Below, piece after piece: positions 9,572 through 26,007 of a stretch of DNA of 64,000 nt. The notes beneath the pieces were generated by a model, which saw nothing but the letters and a program-made list of their open reading frames with translations, did no database searches and had not been told where the DNA came from. The DNA is taken from positions 178,428 to 242,427 of the forward strand of contig JBBTTO010000003.1 of assembly GCA_038064195.1 (NCBI GenBank), read 5' to 3'. Source of the stretch: Patescibacteria group bacterium. Its GTDB lineage: Bacteria; Patescibacteriota; Microgenomatia; Levybacterales; UBA12049. The position numbers and the translations under genes are program-made. Each line of letters begins with the position of its first letter. Position 1 is the stretch's first letter.

Positions 9572-10136
9572 AAGCTTTTTTAAAAGACTGCCGGGCTCTG
9601 AAAAGCAGCGATTCGGTTGCTTTGGGAGAGAGATCAAGCTGCAGCGCAATTTCTTTGATCGGGAGATCCTGTTCGTAGTGGAGCATGAGAATATGGCGGT
9701 ATTTTTCAGACAGAACATGATAGGCTTCTTCCATCCGGTCACGAATTTTATCTTTTTCCATCTGGAACTCGGGTTGATCAATTTCTCTGGCAAGAATATC
9801 CAGGAAAGGAAGTTGGGAGAGGACCAGTGATTTAACTTTCCTTTTGCGATAAAAGTCCACTATTTTGTGTTGAGCAATGCTATAGAGCCAGGAGGACAAG
9901 TTGGCATCTTCTTTGAGAGTAGGCAGGGCATCAATTGCTTCCATAAAGACTTCATTGACCAAGCCCTGGACGTCTTGGGGTGGGAGTTTGCGTGAGAGAA
10001 AACGGGCAATCCGGGGAGAAAATTGGTAGTAAAATTTAGTGACAGCCTGTTCATCACCCTCCAAAATAGCTTGGATTAGCTCTCTCATGGTCATATTATA
10101 CGCAAAAACGAATGATTTTGTCAGGTTTGACGACAT
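9558..10136 (-). CDS. ECF-subfamily RNA polymerase sigma-70 factor
   Basis: Region 2 (YYQFSPRIARFLSRKL, SWLYSIAQHKIVDFYRKRK) and region 4 HTH (LPIKEIALQLDLSPKATESLLFRAR). Confidence 0.8.
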   Translation of the reverse strand: MSSNLTKSFVFAYNMTMRELIQAILEGDEQAVTKFYYQFSPRIARFLSRKLPPQDVQGLVNEVFMEAIDALPTLKEDANLSSWLYSIAQHKIVDFYRKRKVKSLVLSQLPFLDILAREIDQPEFQMEKDKIRDRMEEAYHVLSEKYRHILMLHYEQDLPIKEIALQLDLSPKATESLLFRARQSFKKAYERE

Positions 10137-10154
10137 ATAAGTAGGAGAAAAAAA

Positions 10155-10349
10155 ATGATAGATCTTGAAAGACTGGTTTATGGCCCAATTGCTCTAAATA
10201 AAGATAATGTATCTGATCAAGAAGGTCGTGATCTGGATGAGGATGAAGGGATAGAGACCGGTGAGGGGCGTATATATATGGATTCCTCCCCACTACGGCC
10301 ACGTGAGGCGGCAGGATTTTATATGAGGAGGAAAGGATTATTAGATTAA
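10155..10349 (+). CDS. Possible small acidic protein
   Basis: 64-aa ORF filling the gap between the divergent sigma and idi genes. No support beyond ORF integrity. Confidence 0.25.
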   Translation: MIDLERLVYGPIALNKDNVSDQEGRDLDEDEGIETGEGRIYMDSSPLRPREAAGFYMRRKGLLD

Positions 10350-10352
10350 AAT

Positions 10353-10886
10353 ATGTTACCCAAGCAAATGCTGATGCTCGTTGATGAGCAGGATAATTTT
10401 TTAGGGGAGTATAAAGATATCACGACCTGCCATACCGGAAAGGGCGTGCATCATCGCGCTTTTATCGTCTTTCTTACTAATAAAAAAGGTGAAGCACTAC
10501 TGCAAAAGAGAAAACATGTCAGGTGGGATAATGTCTGGGATATTTCAGTGACGAGTCATACCCTCCATTTACCCGATCACGATGAGAGTTATCTTGAAGC
10601 AGCAACCAGAGCCTTAAAAGTTGAGATGGGTATTCCTGAGATACCGCTTAAGCGGACAGGAGAATTTAATTATTATGCTAAGCATGGTGAACAATGCGAA
10701 AATGAATTTGTGGCTATCTTTCAAGGCAACTATGACGGTCCGCTTACTCCCAATTCTGAGGTCGTTTATGAGTATCGATGGGTGAATCCGGAGCAGTTCT
10801 TTAGGGATATGCGTCACTCTCCTGATGACTATACTCCCTGGGCCAAACACGCGATGGCCACTCTTGAACGGAGGGAGCGGAGATGA
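10353..10886 (+). CDS. idi: Isopentenyl-diphosphate delta-isomerase, type 1 (Nudix fold)
   Basis: HRAFIVFLTNKKGEALLQKRKH...WDISVTSH plus a Nudix-like E-rich motif. First gene of the isoprenoid operon. Confidence 0.75.
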   Translation: MLPKQMLMLVDEQDNFLGEYKDITTCHTGKGVHHRAFIVFLTNKKGEALLQKRKHVRWDNVWDISVTSHTLHLPDHDESYLEAATRALKVEMGIPEIPLKRTGEFNYYAKHGEQCENEFVAIFQGNYDGPLTPNSEVVYEYRWVNPEQFFRDMRHSPDDYTPWAKHAMATLERRERR

Positions 10887-11959
10887 GTCAAATTCAGCAA
10901 GTAGTCAAACAAAATACTGACTATAATACTCATTTTAGTGATTATCTTACTGCTGCAGCTTCTGAAATAGATCGGGAGCTTGAAAGCACGCTGGTTGTTT
11001 GGGGCGATGAGGTAGCCGAGTCAAATCCAGCCCTCCTACCACTTTTTGAGGCATTTAGTCGGTCCTGTAAAGGTGGAAAAAGACTACGGGGAACGATGGT
11101 CAGACTGGGGTATGAGCTTGCAGGCGGGGATAGACCTGAGGCAATTCTTGCGCCAAGTGTGGCATTTGAGATCTTTCAGACTGCCATTCTTGCACACGAT
11201 GACATTATCGACAAAAGTCCTCTCAGACGAGGACAGCCCTCACTTTTTCAAGGCTTAGGAGGAGATCATTATGCTATCTCTCAGACTATCTCGCTTGGAG
11301 ATTTTGGTTTTTTCAAAAGTCTTGAGCTTCTTTTACAAAGTGACTTTCTCAATGAGTTAAAAAATAAAGCTGCAGTTTTTTTTAGCCAAAAAGTACTCAA
11401 GACTATAGAAGGTGAGATGATCGATGTCTATTTACCAACAACTACTGTCTACACACAGGAAGATATTCTTCGCTTAGCATCGCTCAAAACAGCTTCATAT
11501 ACATTTTCCGGGCCACTGGGTCTTGGGGCGCTCCTCGGGGGTGCCAATCAGGAACTCCTCACCCAACTTGAAAAATTCGGAATTAGTTTGGGTATAGCCT
11601 ATCAGCTGCATGATGATTACCTCGGAGTATTTGCTGATGAAAAGACACTGGGTAAATCCACCAGCTCAGATATCATGGAAGGTAAAGTTACCTTATTGTA
11701 TACTTACGCGCTTAAGCATGCAGCAGATGTTGAACGAGAAATTCTCCGTCGGCTTTACGGCAAAAATGATCTTACCTCTCAGGAGGCAGAGGTAGTGAGA
11801 GAGCTCTTCGTCAGTACCGGGGCAGTCTCTGCACTCCAGAAAAAAATGAATGCGTATATCGACCAGGCGCGTGAGGTAATCGATACGCTTACAGGTAACA
11901 GCTTACAAGCACAGCTTCTTTGGAGTATGACGTCGTATTTATTGGAGAGGGAAAAATAA
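10883..11959 (+). CDS. Polyprenyl diphosphate synthase (FPP/GGPP synthase family)
   Basis: Two Asp-rich motifs, LAHDDIID and YQLHDDYLG. Its start overlaps the idi stop. Confidence 0.8.
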   Translation: MSQIQQVVKQNTDYNTHFSDYLTAAASEIDRELESTLVVWGDEVAESNPALLPLFEAFSRSCKGGKRLRGTMVRLGYELAGGDRPEAILAPSVAFEIFQTAILAHDDIIDKSPLRRGQPSLFQGLGGDHYAISQTISLGDFGFFKSLELLLQSDFLNELKNKAAVFFSQKVLKTIEGEMIDVYLPTTTVYTQEDILRLASLKTASYTFSGPLGLGALLGGANQELLTQLEKFGISLGIAYQLHDDYLGVFADEKTLGKSTSSDIMEGKVTLLYTYALKHAADVEREILRRLYGKNDLTSQEAEVVRELFVSTGAVSALQKKMNAYIDQAREVIDTLTGNSLQAQLLWSMTSYLLEREK

Positions 11960-11960
11960 G

Positions 11961-12647
11961 ATGAAGTCACATGTCCCTCAATCTGTGGCCATAATTATGG
12001 ATGGGAACAGACGTTGGGCGAATAAACGTCATCTCCCACTTTTTGCCGGACACGAAAGGGGTGCACGTGTGATCGAACCGCTCGTTGATCATGCCATAAA
12101 GATCGGTATTTCGTATCTCACCTTTTGGGCATTCTCAACTGAGAACTGGAAGCGCTCAGAGGAAGAAGTGCAGACGTTGATGGATGTTTTTCGTAAAGCC
12201 CTCCATGATCCGATGATGAAGCGCCTGGACAGCAGTGGAGCACGGATCAAAGTGATTGGGGACATGACACCTTTCCCCTCAGATATTATTGAAAGAGTAG
12301 ATAAGCTTATCGAGAAAACCAAGGAGAATACCAAGCTGACGGTTAATTTCGCTTTAAATTATGGGGGGAGACAGGAGATCCTTCAGGCGGTGAATCGGTT
12401 GCTTAAGGAAAATAAAGGTGAGGTGACAGAGGAAATGTTTGCCGAGAAGTTATATACTGCCGGACAGCCTGATCCTGATTTAATAATCCGTACTGGTGGA
12501 GAGCAGCGCCTGAGTGGCTATCTGCCATGGCAGGGAGTCTACTCGGAGTTAGCCTTTGTTGATACCTATTGGCCTGATTTTAGTCCAGAGGTTTTTGATA
12601 CCGTACTTTCGGATTTTGCCTCCCGCCAGCGACGATTTGGGAAGTAA
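11961..12647 (+). CDS. uppS: Undecaprenyl-diphosphate synthase (cis-prenyltransferase)
   Basis: MDGNRRWA, ENWKR, IRTGGEQRLSGYLPWQ and ELAFVDTYWPDF are classic UppS motifs. Confidence 0.85.
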   Translation: MKSHVPQSVAIIMDGNRRWANKRHLPLFAGHERGARVIEPLVDHAIKIGISYLTFWAFSTENWKRSEEEVQTLMDVFRKALHDPMMKRLDSSGARIKVIGDMTPFPSDIIERVDKLIEKTKENTKLTVNFALNYGGRQEILQAVNRLLKENKGEVTEEMFAEKLYTAGQPDPDLIIRTGGEQRLSGYLPWQGVYSELAFVDTYWPDFSPEVFDTVLSDFASRQRRFGK

Positions 12648-20554: not shown

Positions 20555-22240
20555 GTGAATAGGTTTTTGACATTTTTTATTTTTAGTTTTGTCACTTTTC
20601 TCCTCTTTCTCCCCGTGAAAGTCTCTGCACAGGAAGCTATTAATTCCTTTGATGTCTCCATGACTGCAGAGAAAAACGGAGATCTTAAGGTATCGGAAAA
20701 GATCGCATATAGCTTTGGTAGTTCGTACAGGCACGGCATTTATCGCTATATTCCACTCGTTTCACGAGTAGGTGATCTATATCGAGTAATCGACATCAAA
20801 TTTACCGGAATTCTCCGCGACGGGAAGAAAGAACAGTATTCCATAAATAGCAGTGGGGAGGAGATAAAAGTAAAGATAGGGGATGCCGACAAGACCATAT
20901 CCGGTCCGCATCTCTATGAGATCGATTACATCGTGCGAAATGGTATCGGGAGTAACTACGCGGATCATGACGAGATCTACTGGAACGTGACAGGGAATGA
21001 GTGGGGAGCACCTATCGAGGCTGCTTCGCTTTCTCTTGCCACAGATTTTGGTGTACCGGTTGGACGGACCATTTGTTTTACGGGACTGATAGGCTCAAAA
21101 GAAAGTAATTGTGAAGTGACCAATACGAATGGATCAGTAAAAGTCGCAACAGCTATCTCTCTTCCTCAGTCGCAAGGATTGACCTTTGTCTCGAAATTTC
21201 CGGTCGGGACTTTCCCTAAAAGTACCCTGCAAAAATCCATGCCTACCGACCCGGATGTCAAAGTATTTTTGATTATTGTAGGCATAGCATTTGTACTCCT
21301 CAATTTTATCCTCGCGCCATTCCTGCTCTCCTGGTATCTAAAAAAGCGCAATAAAACCAGATTTGGTCCGCCTACGGTGAATTTTGATCTGCCGGAGTCT
21401 TTTAATGGGGAGCGTATCAGTCCCTCAGAAGCGGGGACGATCGATAACACTAAGCTTGAGAAAGAAGATGTCGTGGCGACTATTTTTGATCTGGCGATCA
21501 GAAAATATCTCAAGATCGAAGGCACAATCAAAAAGACCAAATTTGGTTTGGGTGAGAGCCAAGACTTTACCCTCACCCGACTTGAGCCCCTCCAAAGGCG
21601 GGCAGGCCACTCATATGCCGAGCCACTCAATCAGTTTGAGAGTTATCTTATGGACAAGCTGTTTAAAGGTGAGAAGACCGCGACGTTAAAAACGGCCAAG
21701 CTGACCTATACGACTTTTTCAGATCTTGAGACCAAGAACTTCGCGTCATTGATCGGCCGCAATTTTTATAGCAAAAATCCCAAAACACAAAAATCATTCA
21801 GTCTGGTTTTTGGCCTCATGGCACTTTTTTCAGGATCGATCATCCTTGGCCCGGTGCTGTTGTATTTATCACGCAAATTAAATGGACGGACGACTCAAGG
21901 GGATGAGATGGATTGGAAGTTAGACGGGCTAAAGATTTTTCTCAAAGCGACCAAGAGATACGATGTCTGGCAGACCAAGAACTTTGTTTTCCTCGAGTCT
22001 ATGATCCCGTACGCGATGGCACTTGGGGTGATTGAGGATTACATGAAAGAGTTGAAGTTACTTAAGCCCAATTATAGTCCGAGTTGGTACAGCGGGCGGG
22101 GGAATTTCTATATGATGTATCCGCTTTTCAACTCAACAGCAAGCAGTAACGTCACGACCAGTGCCCCATCTTCCTCCAGTGGGTTCTCCGGTGGCTCCTC
22201 AGGTGGAGGAGGGGGAGGTGGCGGCGGCGGGTCTTGGTAG
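20555..22240 (+). CDS. DUF2207-family membrane protein with a Gly-rich C-terminal tail
   Basis: Signal peptide, large extracytoplasmic domain, TM helices, and a C-terminus ending GGSSGGGGGGGGGGSW. Confidence 0.7.
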   Translation: MNRFLTFFIFSFVTFLLFLPVKVSAQEAINSFDVSMTAEKNGDLKVSEKIAYSFGSSYRHGIYRYIPLVSRVGDLYRVIDIKFTGILRDGKKEQYSINSSGEEIKVKIGDADKTISGPHLYEIDYIVRNGIGSNYADHDEIYWNVTGNEWGAPIEAASLSLATDFGVPVGRTICFTGLIGSKESNCEVTNTNGSVKVATAISLPQSQGLTFVSKFPVGTFPKSTLQKSMPTDPDVKVFLIIVGIAFVLLNFILAPFLLSWYLKKRNKTRFGPPTVNFDLPESFNGERISPSEAGTIDNTKLEKEDVVATIFDLAIRKYLKIEGTIKKTKFGLGESQDFTLTRLEPLQRRAGHSYAEPLNQFESYLMDKLFKGEKTATLKTAKLTYTTFSDLETKNFASLIGRNFYSKNPKTQKSFSLVFGLMALFSGSIILGPVLLYLSRKLNGRTTQGDEMDWKLDGLKIFLKATKRYDVWQTKNFVFLESMIPYAMALGVIEDYMKELKLLKPNYSPSWYSGRGNFYMMYPLFNSTASSNVTTSAPSSSSGFSGGSSGGGGGGGGGGSW

Positions 22241-22440
22241 TTTTTTTCTTTTATTTTTCTTGGGGGTCGGTAGTAACTTTGAATCTTTTATCTTCGAACC
22301 TTTTATTTTTTTAGATCGATCTTGAATAAAGGTTACAGGACCATAAAAATTATTTTCAACTTTTTGTGAGTTGTGGGGTTCAAAATGAAGAAAATTTGAG
22401 AAATCTGCCCCTATTTTAAAAAGACTTTCAACGAGCTGGT

Positions 22441-22839
22441 TCATATTTTAAGTTCAATAATATAGAGTCTTCCTACTCCTGGAACGTTTTCCTGAGTCCA
22501 TTCGTATCTTCCATTGTGTTTTTTAGGATCGATATCATGTGCCTTTAAAAAACTGGTAGCTGAGACCGTTGCGTTGAACTTTTCTTTGGTAATTTTAAAG
22601 GTTGCTTTATCTTTATTATTAGTAGGCAAAATTCCTATTGCTCGTTTAGCTTTATCAAAAAATAAAATCACATAGTCATATTTTAAGATATCAGTAATTT
22701 TGCAAAATTTGGCTGAAAAGGCTATTGCGTAGTGCTGAGTAATAGAGATTTCTGCAGCTCCCGGAGTAAAGTCTTTCTCAAACTTAGTAAAGTTATAACT
22801 CATACTTCCCATAGTACCATTATATTTTCCCGTTGTCAA
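22441..22839 (-). CDS. Hypothetical protein carried on the approx 640-bp inserted segment
   Basis: 132-aa ORF. It is AT-rich and on the opposite strand to DUF2207. Confidence 0.4.
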   Translation of the reverse strand: MTTGKYNGTMGSMSYNFTKFEKDFTPGAAEISITQHYAIAFSAKFCKITDILKYDYVILFFDKAKRAIGILPTNNKDKATFKITKEKFNATVSATSFLKAHDIDPKKHNGRYEWTQENVPGVGRLYIIELKI

Positions 22840-22880
22840 TCTCCGTGTTTACCATTATCTCCATCAGTCTTTGCGGTAGT

Positions 22881-22921
22881 TCCTCAGGTGGAGGAGGCGG
22901 AGGTGGCGGAGGGTCTTGGTA
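22881..22921 (+). repeat. Direct repeat copy 2 of the DUF2207 3' end (in-frame relic ...GSSSGGGGGGGGGSW-stop without a start codon)
   Basis: tcctcaggtggaggaggcggaggtggcggagggtcttggtaa compared with copy 1 at 22196-22240 is about 38/41 identical. Confidence 0.8.
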
Positions 22922-23002
22922 ACCCCAGCTTCCCAATTCCTTCTCTCCAAGTAAAAAGAGAGTCGCGTTCTCTAGGTAATGGAATAGTGGTATAATGACC
23001 TC

Positions 23003-23236
23003 ATGCTAGAGAAAGAATATAAATATTATAAAGACAATCAAAAGGATTTCCTGAGTAAGTATAAAGGGAAAGTTTTAGTCATAAAAGAAGAAAAGCTTAT
23101 TGGTGTCTATGACGATGAAGCAGTTGCATATGATGCAACGGTATCTGTTCATCCACTGGGAACGTTTCTTATTCAAAGATGTGTGCCTGATAATGAAACT
23201 GTGCAATCATTCCACTCAAGAGTGATCTTTTCATGA
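23003..23236 (+). CDS. DUF5678-like small protein
   Basis: 77 aa. KGKVLVIKEEKLIGVYDDEAVAYDAT...GTFLIQRCVPDNE fits my memory of DUF5678. Confidence 0.45.
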   Translation: MLEKEYKYYKDNQKDFLSKYKGKVLVIKEEKLIGVYDDEAVAYDATVSVHPLGTFLIQRCVPDNETVQSFHSRVIFS

Positions 23237-23242
23237 AAAATA

Positions 23243-23827
23243 ATGCAAGACTTTCAAGCTTTTACTGTAAAGTATTCTGGTAGAACTAATGTACTTCAAA
23301 GCGAGGTAGCTATTTCAGCCGCGTTTGATCCCACTATAGTAGTCAAAGTGAATAGACCTCAATCCGTTAAAGCAATGGCGATTTGGGATACCGGTGCTAG
23401 CTGTAGTGTGATCTCAAAAAACTTAGCACAGAAAATTGGCCTTGTTCCTTCGGGGAAAACTACAATTACTGGAGTGAATCATACTACTTTGGAGAATACA
23501 TATCTCGTTAATGTATACCTACCAAACAATGTTTGTGCAGGATATATAAGAATCGCAGAAGTCCCTGCGTTATCAGGTGGTGCTGACGTCTTAATTGGAA
23601 TGGATATTATTGGTGAGGGAGACTTTTCGCTGTACTTAGAAAATGGGTGTAGCGTTATGAGTTATAGATTACCGAGTATTGGAGGAACGGATTATGTGGT
23701 TTTAGCAGGGAACATCAATAACCAGCAAGCTTTGCGTCAAAAAATTATGAACGAAAAATCAAATCTTTCTCGAATGAATAGGGCAAAGGCTATGCACAAA
23801 AGAAGGTCAAAGAAAAAGAAGAATTAA
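23243..23827 (+). CDS. Retropepsin-like (clan AA) aspartic protease with a basic C-terminal tail
   Basis: IWDTGAS (DTGA catalytic motif) and LIGMDII flap/dimer motif. The tail is KAMHKRRSKKKKN. Confidence 0.7.
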   Translation: MQDFQAFTVKYSGRTNVLQSEVAISAAFDPTIVVKVNRPQSVKAMAIWDTGASCSVISKNLAQKIGLVPSGKTTITGVNHTTLENTYLVNVYLPNNVCAGYIRIAEVPALSGGADVLIGMDIIGEGDFSLYLENGCSVMSYRLPSIGGTDYVVLAGNINNQQALRQKIMNEKSNLSRMNRAKAMHKRRSKKKKN

Positions 23828-23882
23828 TTAAACCTTTGATCAGTGGGCTCGTTATTCTAATCATAATCTTCGGATAAGGAAA

Positions 23883-24662
23883 CTATTTTAACAATGAAGC
23901 TTCTTCGTAGGTGTTAGGGATAATATTTTTCTCTATTGAATATACCGCAACTAATATTGAGTCATAAGTCTGAGTACTTTCATCATACCCTTGAGGATAT
24001 TGTTCTAATTGCTCTCCAAATAAATTATTAATTTCGTTAATTATAGTTGCTCTTTCTTTTTTTGAAAGAAGATAAGGAATTTCTCCAGTAGGGTTATCAG
24101 ATTTTGGATAATCATAATAGAGAGAGGCAATTTGGGGTGCCGATATAAAAATTGTTTTGAACCCACTATCTCTATCAGTGTTGTGCTTAGCAACCGCATA
24201 ACTTAAATTTTCTTCATAATTCGGGTCGTTATAGTCAATCTTTCGCAAATAGGCAATAAAATCATTATTTGCTTTTATGACCTTATTTGCTCCTAGAGTC
24301 ATACCTTCAGCACTGAGAGAAATTACTTGATTGGGGTCGTTAACATACTTCTGAACAGAAGAATTTCCATCTTTCATATAATCATTCTGTTTTAATAGAG
24401 TCGTAATTGCTTGAGTAAGAACGTCTTGGTCTTGGTGCGTATTTGTATTTTGACCAGCTAATTCATAGTAAGATAAGGCATTTAGTATATCCAACGAGGC
24501 CTCAACCTTATTTTGGGCAGACTTTACAATTCCGATTGTTGGAGTCATGACTTGAGATCCTTCATAAACTGTCTTAGTAGAATTATTTTGATTAAAATAA
24601 TATAACCCTCCAAGAACTAAAAGGATAATAATAAGCCAAGATTTATTAGTATTGTTTTTCAT
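23883..24662 (-). CDS. Membrane-anchored secreted hypothetical protein
   Basis: N-terminal TM helix. AT-rich. Confidence 0.45.
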   Translation of the reverse strand: MKNNTNKSWLIIILLVLGGLYYFNQNNSTKTVYEGSQVMTPTIGIVKSAQNKVEASLDILNALSYYELAGQNTNTHQDQDVLTQAITTLLKQNDYMKDGNSSVQKYVNDPNQVISLSAEGMTLGANKVIKANNDFIAYLRKIDYNDPNYEENLSYAVAKHNTDRDSGFKTIFISAPQIASLYYDYPKSDNPTGEIPYLLSKKERATIINEINNLFGEQLEQYPQGYDESTQTYDSILVAVYSIEKNIIPNTYEEASLLK

Positions 24663-24683
24663 TTGTTATAGTTTACTTCAAGT

Positions 24684-25130
24684 TTATAACCACTGGCTGA
24701 CACCGCCATGATGAGAGCATGTTCCACGCCTACTCTGACTAAAACTATATGTCCCGTCTCCACAGATAGCTGTTGCTCCTGCAGGTACAGAATTTGAGTA
24801 GGCAGGTGAGTGGACTTCATTTCCAGCACTATTTGTATAGTAATTATCATTACTTAGCCCTGATTGTGTTGTAGCTGCTGGGATTGGCGTAGGTGTACTA
24901 GTTGGAGCGACATAGATTTTTTTAGGTGTCGGTGTTGCGGTTGGAAAAGGAGTTGGAGTGTTGGTAGGAAGTGGGGTAGGAGTAACGATTTCTTGGACGG
25001 CTGTAGGTACAGAGGTAACGACAGTATTTAAGCCTTTTACTTCGCTTTGAGAAGGTTGACCATATGAAGATAAACCTCCAATGACGAGAATCCCTACCAC
25101 AGCCGCAATAGTAATTCCTTTAGTACTCAT
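24684..25130 (-). CDS. Secreted Thr/Pro-rich protein with a C-terminal DUF3761 domain
   Basis: The C-terminus CGDGTYSFSQSRRGTCSHHGGV matches the DUF3761 C...C-S-x-H-G-G-V signature. Confidence 0.55.
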   Translation of the reverse strand: MSTKGITIAAVVGILVIGGLSSYGQPSQSEVKGLNTVVTSVPTAVQEIVTPTPLPTNTPTPFPTATPTPKKIYVAPTSTPTPIPAATTQSGLSNDNYYTNSAGNEVHSPAYSNSVPAGATAICGDGTYSFSQSRRGTCSHHGGVSQWL

Positions 25131-25203
25131 TTATAGCCGGGCAGTTATCAGACTATACTCCTATAGTATTAAATTGTCAAGAAACTATAAGGTAGTGGTA
25201 TAA

Positions 25204-25908
25204 TTGCGACGAATGAAAATACAAGACGATATTATTTCTTACAGAGAGATGTGTGATATCGAAAATGTTCAAACCCTTCAAAGAGGTATGAATTATCGAT
25301 TAAACAGAGATTATTCAGTGATTCTCCTCTCTCAAAGAACTAATGCTCCATATCAAGACAAGATTCATGAAGACGGCATCTCTATTGAATATGAGGGTCA
25401 TGATATATCGAGAAAAGGCTATGATCATAATCCTAAAGCGTATGATCAGGAGTCAAGACTCCCATCTGGAAGATTAACTCAAAATGGGTTATTTCTTCAA
25501 GCGGCTGAAGAATATAAGCGTGGTCAACGAAAGCCAGAGTTAATAAAAGCCTATGAAAAAATTATGGATGGGGTTTGGTCATTAAAAGGCTTTTTTGAGT
25601 TAGTGGATTATAAAATAGAACATGATGGGGCTAGAAATACTTTTCATTTTATTTTAAGACTGACAAATGACCAGTCAGTGAGAAATATTGAAAAAATTGA
25701 TGTGGCTCACACTCGACTTATTCCGTCGCAGGTTAAAAAAGAAGTCTGGAAAAGAGATGGGGGTAAGTGTGTGATTTGTGAAAGTCGTAATAATTTACAT
25801 TTTGACCATGAACTCCCGTTTTCAAAAGGTGGGACAAGTCTAACCTCAAAAAATGTTCAACTTCTTTGTATGAAACATAATCTAGAAAAGTCTGCGAAGA
25901 TAGAGTGA
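25204..25908 (+). CDS. HNH endonuclease with an N-terminal SRA-like (putative modified-cytosine reader) domain
   Basis: C-terminus GGKCVICESRNNLHFDHELPFSKGG...CMKHN is an HNH motif. N-terminus DYSVILLSQRTNAPYQDKIHEDGISIEYEGHD resembles the SRA core. A TTG or internal ATG start follows directly after TATAAT. Confidence 0.55.
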   Translation: MRRMKIQDDIISYREMCDIENVQTLQRGMNYRLNRDYSVILLSQRTNAPYQDKIHEDGISIEYEGHDISRKGYDHNPKAYDQESRLPSGRLTQNGLFLQAAEEYKRGQRKPELIKAYEKIMDGVWSLKGFFELVDYKIEHDGARNTFHFILRLTNDQSVRNIEKIDVAHTRLIPSQVKKEVWKRDGGKCVICESRNNLHFDHELPFSKGGTSLTSKNVQLLCMKHNLEKSAKIE

Positions 25909-26007
25909 TTTTTGTACCTACCGCGAAGCAGTTAAAAAAGTGGAGCTCTAAATACCCAACTCTTCCATATTGCTTTTTGATTTTTGGGGATTTATACTAA
26001 TTCTTAG

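Follow-up and report, generated by a model that had tools for sequence, protein, structure and literature searches.

Phages and other elements that integrate into the 3' end of a protein-coding gene bring a replacement end with them, as lambdoid phage 21 and e14 do in icd. The dif/pdif modules and the integrative mobile elements exploiting Xer (IMEX) have no recombinase of their own, carry one or two genes and use 28-bp dif-like sites with the host XerC/D, and the integration of a CRISPR spacer duplicates the whole repeat of about 30 bp. Cis-mobilisable elements (CIMEs) are decayed remnants of ICEs (integrative and conjugative elements) or IMEs (integrative and mobilisable elements) that keep their attachment (att) sites without an own recombinase, and they are described at the 3' ends of the streptococcal genes rpmG, rpsI, fda and rplL (PMC7563491). 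For Rhs and type VI secretion system (T6SS) loci, recombination at one end and the displacement of 3' ends have been described (PMC5361080), and casposons use a defined site at the 3' end of a conserved gene (tRNA-Pro in A. boonei), duplicate a fixed 15-bp target, carry terminal inverted repeats (TIRs) and encode a Cas1 integrase (PMC5137440). Here we analyse an insert at the 3' end of a DUF2207 gene within 64,000 nucleotides of a Patescibacteria group bacterium (Levybacterales; assembly GCA_038064195.1, contig JBBTTO010000003.1, positions 178,428 to 242,427), a stretch that we call the window and to which all coordinates without a locus label refer. A foreign, portable two-gene cassette lies between two copies of the last codons of this gene, which itself is intact; relatives lack the arrangement, the cassette recurs at ftsZ and at other genes, and no recognisable recombinase accompanies it. 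We tentatively favour reading the repeat as an insertion footprint, the gene end having been restored by host recombination at this conserved end.

The locus is made up of the following features.

20555..22240, plus strand: DUF2207 membrane-protein gene, the target of the insertion (561 aa; Pfam PF09972, DUF2207, and PF20990, DUF2207_C)
22196..22240, plus strand: copy 1, the working 3' end of the DUF2207 gene (SSGGGGGGGGGGSW, TAG; 45 nt, the last 14 codons and TAG)
22199..22444, minus strand: ORF81, a small basic open reading frame (ORF) of 81 aa with a 4-nt ATGA overlap with ORF132
22241..22880: the insert, 640 bp, GC 0.33 against 0.46 for the DUF2207 gene
22441..22839, minus strand: ORF132; called start ATG at 22812, giving 123 aa, with a leaderless start at 22803 possible
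22811..22839, minus strand: promoter-like site directly upstream of the ORF132 start, TTGACA-17 nt-TACTAT, the second hexamer preceded by TG; it agrees with the consensus at 10 of 12 positions and is no more than such a match
22881..22922, plus strand: copy 2, a gene-end relic, non-coding (..GSSSGGGGGGGGGSW, TAA; 42 nt, one Gly codon short, gene body absent upstream)

Copy 1 reads TCC TCA GGT GGA GGA GGG GGA GGT GGC GGC GGC GGG TCT TGG TAG and copy 2 reads TCC TCA GGT GGA GGA GGC GGA GGT GGC GGA GGG TCT TGG TAA, the latter giving ..LCGSSSGGGGGGGGGSW-TAA in frame. Of the aligned bases 39/42 are identical, the copies differing by the substitutions GGG to GGC, GGC to GGA and TAG to TAA and by one GGC codon lost in copy 2. 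The copy starts are 685 nt apart. A 29-nt core of the repeat occurs exactly twice in the window and in none of 100 shuffles, and the best ungapped 27-nt window between the copies matches at 26 of 27 positions, against a maximum of 18 in 1000 shuffles; with 22852-22880 set against 22167-22195, support for a longer repeat of about 70 nt is marginal (4-14 of 2000 shuffles). The window holds no third copy of the repeat, including at the far end of the low-GC region, and no tRNA or transfer-messenger RNA (tmRNA) gene that could have been the target. Fold z-scores at either copy are unremarkable for a structured RNA, and no terminator-like site was found at the copies. A first-pass annotation, made from the letters of the window alone, had described an insertion of about 640 bp between direct repeats at the 3' end of the DUF2207 gene, with copy 1 as the actual gene end, and both statements are borne out, the latter by the Pfam match and the tails of orthologues. 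Its in-frame relic at 22881-22921 is upheld with an end one base further on, at 22922; the DNA between the copies is AT-rich as it had said, but low GC continues to about 26007; and its single opposite-strand ORF of 132 aa is present together with the overlapping minus-strand ORF81. It was also right that the insert has no recombinase: no integrase or transposase family matches the insert, the low-GC flank or any of 40 tested ORFs of the window.

Just within the two ends of the insert lie 22264-22273 (GGGTCGGTAG) and 22865-22880 (GTCTT-TGC-GGTAGT), both of which resemble the last 12 nt of the gene including TAG-T. The former, on the plus strand 24 nt past the real stop codon, is a possible tiny third copy of the gene end (GGGTCGGTAG against GGGTCTTGGTAG; 6 of 2000 shuffles), a post hoc observation to which we give low weight. 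The two short sequences may be footprints of earlier events, or chance.

Comparison with orthologues shows how exceptional the second copy is. The 25-residue C-terminal tail APSSSSGFSGGSSGGGGGGGGGGSW is identical in 15/15 inspected orthologue proteins (66-100% identity) and in about 40 locus tails, with varying Gly codons. This tail (window 22166-22240) is invariant down to about 45% overall identity, though codons differ, which, as far as sequence comparison goes, implies strong protein-level constraint on the Gly10-Ser-Trp end. According to the first-pass annotation, an arrangement carried by all relatives with diverged repeats would have meant an old duplication. About 40 orthologues at 45-79% identity have one gene end each, so not all of them carry it, and an old shared duplication is rejected: a regular-expression scan of the fetched loci and a local-alignment scan of 110 DUF2207 loci place a second tail only in this population and in one distant locus, L042. 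A second tail match in L035/L125 was discarded as a chance match inside another gene (purD by sequence). In the closest syntenic relative (L172/L173; 79% amino acid and 76% nucleotide identity), the tail leads directly into unrelated genes, with neither relic nor cassette. Copy 1 matches L172 at nearly every position, and the ending GGGTCTTGGTA is common to copies 1 and 2. Since this ending is in no other orthologue tail listed, both copies would come from this lineage or a very near relative. No relative examined has a tandem DUF2207 paralogue, and no other DUF2207-derived sequence lies upstream of the relic.

The insert is a compact minus-strand operon consisting of the promoter-like site, ORF132 and the small basic ORF81, whose last 14 codons read antisense through copy 1. 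The promoter-like site would imply a leaderless start for ORF132, and a comparable TTGACA-17-TATATT is placed similarly in another locus with the cassette, L009 (read by eye). ORF132 has 7 close homologues at 58-77% identity and belongs to a large unnamed family of proteins of about 125 aa (649 clusters at 50% identity, E<=0.001). Members of this family are always paired with a small basic ORF, by a 4-nt overlap or by fusion, and in P0004 the ORF132 homologue and its small partner are fused in frame. ORF81 is homologous to the partner ORFs of 51-59 aa found elsewhere, shares with them the motif F[HY]GPVTF and is 57% identical to the partner in L009 (tblastn). At the DNA level the insert can be aligned to the cassette in L004, L009 and L005 only across 22322-22826. 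No conserved cassette termini were found, the 3' termini differing among cassette copies, and the insert ends carry no inverted repeats.

Neither ORF132 nor any of 70 family members has a Pfam match, PADLOC gave no match, and the only PHROGs match of the cassette proteins is a weak one of ORF132 to phrog_18159 (unknown function; E 0.044). An AlphaFold 2 model of ORF132 built from the 70 family members reached a predicted local distance difference test score (pLDDT) of 92; a version from 7 sequences (pLDDT 45) was not used. Foldseek found no significant neighbour of the model in the PDB, the best being MraZ (E about 2) and a B3 domain at a template modelling (TM) score of 0.40, and the family profile reached AbrB regulators at E 0.1 only. 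The model resembles several uncharacterised phage proteins (BFVD, E 3.7e-5, TM 0.61); no relatives of the cassette were found in viral contigs. To judge from the model, ORF132 probably binds nucleic acid as a small protein with a barrel fold and a phage-like origin, and nothing hints at catalysis.

The search for ORF132 elsewhere that the first-pass annotation had proposed led to the operon at ftsZ, at an aminoacyl-tRNA synthetase gene and at further loci. In other Patescibacteria the operon lies convergent to ftsZ (L004, L009/L010, L174 and L175), with the stop codon of the small ORF abutting or, as seen in L174, overlapping that of ftsZ. Upstream of the cassette promoter stands a relic of the last ten or so ftsZ codons (..PAFLRQRN-stop), whose position is shared by L009, L175 and L004. 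The cassette loci with a duplicated ftsZ 3' end are as follows.

L009:3228-4045
L004:4246-4986
L175:312-366
L174:540-594

The relic reads GTCCCCGCATTTCTCCGACAGAGGAACTAA (..VPAFLRQRN-stop) in L009 and is progressively decayed in L175 and L004. In ungapped comparison, the L009 relic matches the ftsZ end of its own locus at 23/27 positions and that of L004 at 24/27 (both 0/1000 shuffles); the decayed relic of L004 matches at 19/27 (4/1000 shuffles). L009 holds three copies of the ftsZ end, namely the working end, a relic abutting the stop codon of the small ORF and the relic upstream of the cassette, and the first two are separated by a gene-free insert of 52 nt (relic and hairpin) that pushed the ftsZ end away a second time. 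Its working end reads CGC AAT TAG, and both relics, like the working end of L004, read AGG AAC/T TAA. The GC content of the cassette (0.29-0.33) is below that of its host (0.39-0.46) in every context. In L005 the cassette lies beside a gene for a class II aminoacyl-tRNA synthetase, with no detectable relic, and P0284, a 52% identical homologue, has the same architecture and a 4-nt overlap with the host gene end; contact or overlap between the small ORF and the stop codon of its host gene is seen in at least four contexts. One cassette is thus present at two different conserved genes, each time convergent and filling the space between the real gene end and its relic.

Gene-end relics also occur with other cargo. 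Across the fetched loci, 1393 genes were scanned by comparing their last 45 nt with the next 1.5 kb, internal segments serving as controls, and duplicated 3' ends outnumbered the controls by 4 to 1 at a score of at least 42 and by 3 to 0 at a score of at least 50. The cases are listed below, the host genes of L157, L083 and L024 being putative identifications read from their sequence.

L042, gene end 11572, relic 12174-12200 (locus 9932-12200): DUF2207 relic, GGGGGGSW-TAA; 23/27 nt, 0/1000 shuffles
L042, 11596-12147, minus strand: cargo of the same locus, a single convergent gene of the Ham1 family
L157, 163-2600: penicillin-binding-protein-like host gene; perfect 38/38 nt; cargo a convergent 102-aa ORF
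L083, 2517-4737: alanine-dehydrogenase-like host gene of an alphaproteobacterium; 57/66 nt; cargo a convergent 299-aa ORF
L024, 13754-15592: metK-like host gene; 26/29 nt; cargo a co-directional 207-aa ORF

L042 belongs to a distant genome (DUF2207 38% identical), and its insert has no GC anomaly. With the present locus and ftsZ included, the cargo is convergent in 5 of 6 cases. A further candidate, L140:2917-2948, was set aside as unrelated to the relics: it is a 32-nt palindrome at a gene end, resembling a repetitive extragenic palindrome (REP), that recurs within or beside an ORF that, from a look at its sequence, resembles a transposase of the IS200 or REP-associated tyrosine transposase (RAYT) type. 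In every relic case the similarity ends at the stop codon or within 9 nt of it, and the length of the repeat varies among events from about 27 to 66 nt, with about 45 nt at the present locus and about 30 nt at ftsZ. Directly after 38 matching bases, the L157 copies part as WFNQ-TGA and WFNL-TAG, and those of L083 end in PDWLS-TAA and PDWLG-TGA, with Leu as TTG and CTT. The copies in L157, L083 and L009 look like two alleles of one gene end, both closing the frame. Such allele-like copies would fit incoming DNA with a gene end of its own, either an att mimic or a donor allele, rather than the fill-in of a staggered cut.

Set beside the described systems, the locus shares features with several. 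It is like phage 21 and e14 in that the gene end is duplicated, with one functional copy and one relic, and in that the similarity stops at the stop codon; those elements, however, encode an integrase and measure tens of kilobases, whereas the insert here is 0.64 kb long and encodes none. Like CIMEs, it is small, lies in a variable region next to its target gene and is flanked by direct repeats, with one of them restoring a conserved gene at its 3' end; the insert keeps att-like repeats and lacks genes for recombination and transfer. In contrast, CIMEs descend from an integrase-bearing ICE or IME with the same att site and move by accretion, and no such element turned up here; one cassette is present at two target genes that are unrelated; and the cassette is adjacent to its target, whereas in streptococci the decayed elements are furthest from the target gene. 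The 3'-end displacement of Rhs, contact-dependent inhibition (CDI) and T6SS loci (PMC5361080) likewise involves a one-sided anchor, a new 3' end with extra genes, an orphaned resident end and no dedicated recombinase, but the displaced ends are long, variable toxin domains and the protein is changed, while here 42 nt of an invariant tail are displaced, the protein is unchanged and no donor arrangement was found. A site next to a gene end and a duplicated target recall casposons and CRISPR spacer integration, which differ in that TIRs, Cas1 and a fixed length are missing here. Like dif/pdif modules and IMEX, the insert is a small module between short repeated sites; unlike theirs, its sites copy the end of the neighbouring gene, and no dif-like site was seen by eye, no formal search having been made. 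Nor do the duplications have the fixed length of transposon target-site duplications, and they end at the stop codon. Integron attC sites do not match either: the repeats are coding, G-rich and in direct orientation, they show no significant fold, and no integrase was found.

We propose the following hypothetical course of events, in which (i) incoming DNA carrying the cassette beside the conserved gene end would recombine with the resident locus through this short homology, without an element-encoded integrase; (ii) the foreign two-gene cassette of about 0.64 kb would thereby enter at the DUF2207 stop codon, convergent to the gene; (iii) the last 14 DUF2207 codons would end up on both sides of the cassette, copy 1 keeping the gene intact; and (iv) copy 2 would remain as the displaced, non-coding relic, followed by the older downstream flank. 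A circularised fragment could have entered by a single crossover of the Campbell type; alternatively, homologous recombination at one end could have been completed by an illegitimate join at the other (homology-facilitated illegitimate recombination, HFIR). Either route would shift the resident gene end downstream. The layout is that of HFIR and 3'-end displacement, with a conserved tail as anchor, a non-homologous flank in every relative and the relic directly beyond the insert, and with a conserved anchor gene adjoining a non-homologous flank, one-ended recombination is the route available. The first-pass annotation had likened the arrangement to elements that integrate into a gene end and restore it, as tRNA-targeting elements do. 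Gene-end integration with a restored end is supported by the single ends of relatives, the foreign GC, the operon elsewhere and the ftsZ footprint; a miniature integrative element of the tRNA type is unproven.

Several observations weigh against host recombination as the source of the repeat. No donor with the cassette beside DUF2207 was found in any other genome, a donor of the same species not being detectable, and for this reason the first arrival at DUF2207 would still need an illegitimate event. No recombination breakpoint appears along DUF2207 in comparison with relatives, so an imported 3' part of the gene is not supported. Copies 1 and 2 share synonymous states (GGG TCT before TGG) that are absent from the other listed tails, and a purely intragenomic duplication therefore fits this case equally well; for the DUF2207 event, it and a same-species donor cannot be told apart. 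Neither a clean empty site nor a circular form was recovered. For the former, the obstacle is DNA after DUF2207 that is different in each relative: the flanks beyond copies 1 and 2 cannot be aligned to the flank of any relative, and a cassette-free junction would read as the DUF2207 body, a single tail and ..TGGTAACCCCAGCTTCCCAATTCC. Finally, the same polarity and tight packing at two genes are a coincidence under generic recombination, which accounts for this finding least well, and natural for a dedicated mobile element.

That last observation bears directly on the possibility that the cassette, at about 0.6 kb, is a self-sufficient mobile element of an undescribed kind, in which ORF132 (probably a DNA-binding barrel) and the small ORF insert at the stop codons of convergent conserved genes and duplicate 30-45 bp, that is, the last 10-15 codons. 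Two different genes carry target-specific duplications with identical polarity, the cassette fills the whole space between the repeats, the small ORF meets host stop codons repeatedly (at least four contexts), the family has many members, a patchy distribution and low GC, and the states shared by the two copies and absent from the other listed tails are such as a true target duplication would give. We nevertheless consider self-mobility distinctly unlikely: the proteins match no catalytic family in Pfam, PHROGs or PADLOC and their best structural neighbours are uncharacterised phage proteins and MraZ (TM 0.40), terminal inverted repeats or conserved termini are missing, the duplications differ in length (about 45 and about 30 nt), the L005 copy has no relic, and relics also flank ordinary genes such as Ham1 in L042, so that the footprint is not specific to the cassette. 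Movement in trans, with the cassette as a remnant or parasite of an integrative element, copies 1 and 2 as attL and attR of a CIME-like satellite and an integrase encoded elsewhere that recognises the DUF2207 end, seems to us rather unlikely. It agrees with direct repeats that overlap and restore the 3' end of the gene and stop at the stop codon, as for an element-borne replacement end, with analogous cases in which both copies close the frame with different codons, and with the position of the locus in a hot spot where accessory and restriction-modification genes abound; CIMEs lacking a recombinase, and microCIMEs lacking any gene, are, moreover, documented at the 3' ends of rpmG, rpsI, fda and rplL (PMC7563491), and the 52-nt ftsZ insert of L009 resembles a microCIME. 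What speaks against such a satellite is that no integrase was found in the insert, the low-GC flank or 40 ORFs of the 64-kb window, nor among the 10 downstream genes tested in close relatives (a partial test), that the far end of the low-GC region holds no third att copy, and that the presence of the cassette at the unrelated ftsZ and DUF2207 genes would demand two integrase specificities or a swap of att segments.

Mobility could also be left out of the duplication altogether. Copy 2 could have arisen locally, by slippage or unequal exchange within the (GGN)n tract or by the reduction of a tandem DUF2207 paralogue to its last 14 codons, the cassette arriving independently. The tail is G-rich, of low complexity and prone to slippage, copy 2 is one Gly codon short, and both copies share the ending absent from the other listed orthologue tails; all the same, we hold a local origin to be very improbable. 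The slipped duplication offered as an alternative in the first-pass annotation does not account for 640 bp of foreign operon DNA between the copies, the DNA upstream of the relic contains nothing else derived from DUF2207, tandem paralogues are absent from the relatives, and the gene ends at ftsZ, L157, L083 and L024 are non-repetitive and yet show the same footprint. The first-pass annotation had also considered that the junctions might be assembly artefacts, and a chimeric join at a G-rich low-complexity tract is conceivable, as such sequence can mislead assemblers. Four assemblies nevertheless agree: a 1.1-kb region is 100% identical in L001-L003 (two Logan single-run assemblies and an ENA co-assembly of Hainich groundwater, there on a contig of 1.08 Mb) and 99.9% identical in L011, a separate, frameshift-rich assembly, probably of long reads, that spans both junctions. 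The same arrangement is deposited at NCBI (proteins MEK7605780.1 and MEK7605781.1), and an artefact is hardly credible.

Beyond the relic, the DUF2207 gene is followed by a variable region with these features.

22923..26007: low-GC variable flank, GC 0.365, which also contains a 259-aa ORF and a DUF3761 gene
23003..23827: ORF77 (77 aa) and, after a 7-nt gap, a retropepsin-like aspartyl protease of 194 aa (Pfam gag-asp_proteas, Asp_protease_2)
25204..25908: HNH endonuclease gene

Host-like composition resumes at the DUF1761 gene (26008). In L025 a DUF1761 gene directly follows DUF2207, which hints, from gene order, that DUF1761 could be the ancestral neighbour. ORF77 and the protease may form a two-gene accessory module, and the protease has weak PADLOC matches to the candidate system PDC-M08B. 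The motif TAGTGGTATAAT occurs at 22986-22999 and 25193-25206, 6-8 nt upstream of the ATGs of ORF77 and the HNH gene, and its position suggests extended -10 promoters that would yield leaderless mRNAs. In relatives, the DUF2207 flank carries restriction-modification genes (HsdR-like in L013, a type III methylase and Res in L014, an EcoRI-type methylase in L098 and an N6/N4 methylase in L172); the 3' flank of DUF2207 is thus a hot spot, variable or defence-related, where accessory genes collect beside a conserved anchor. L172 (13310-13371) still matches the DUF3761 gene over 62 nt of its 3' end (window 24680-24741), and L012 (3827-4288) has an intact DUF3761 gene at 73% identity, 2 kb downstream of DUF2207. 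Because these traces persist in L172 and L012, part of the low-GC flank may predate the cassette.

Bacteria of the candidate phyla radiation (CPR) have tiny genomes in which few mobile elements can be recognised, and little is understood of how accessory genes reach them. The DUF2207 locus, the parallel at ftsZ and the four further cases suggest one such route, in which the very conserved last codons of housekeeping genes serve as portable landing pads. The displaced copy of a gene end is a scar that is easily searched for and could make it possible to date and count the gene gains of uncultivated lineages. Were the cassette self-mobile after all, it would represent a minimal mobile element of a new type, and the unnamed family of 649 clusters would gain a function.

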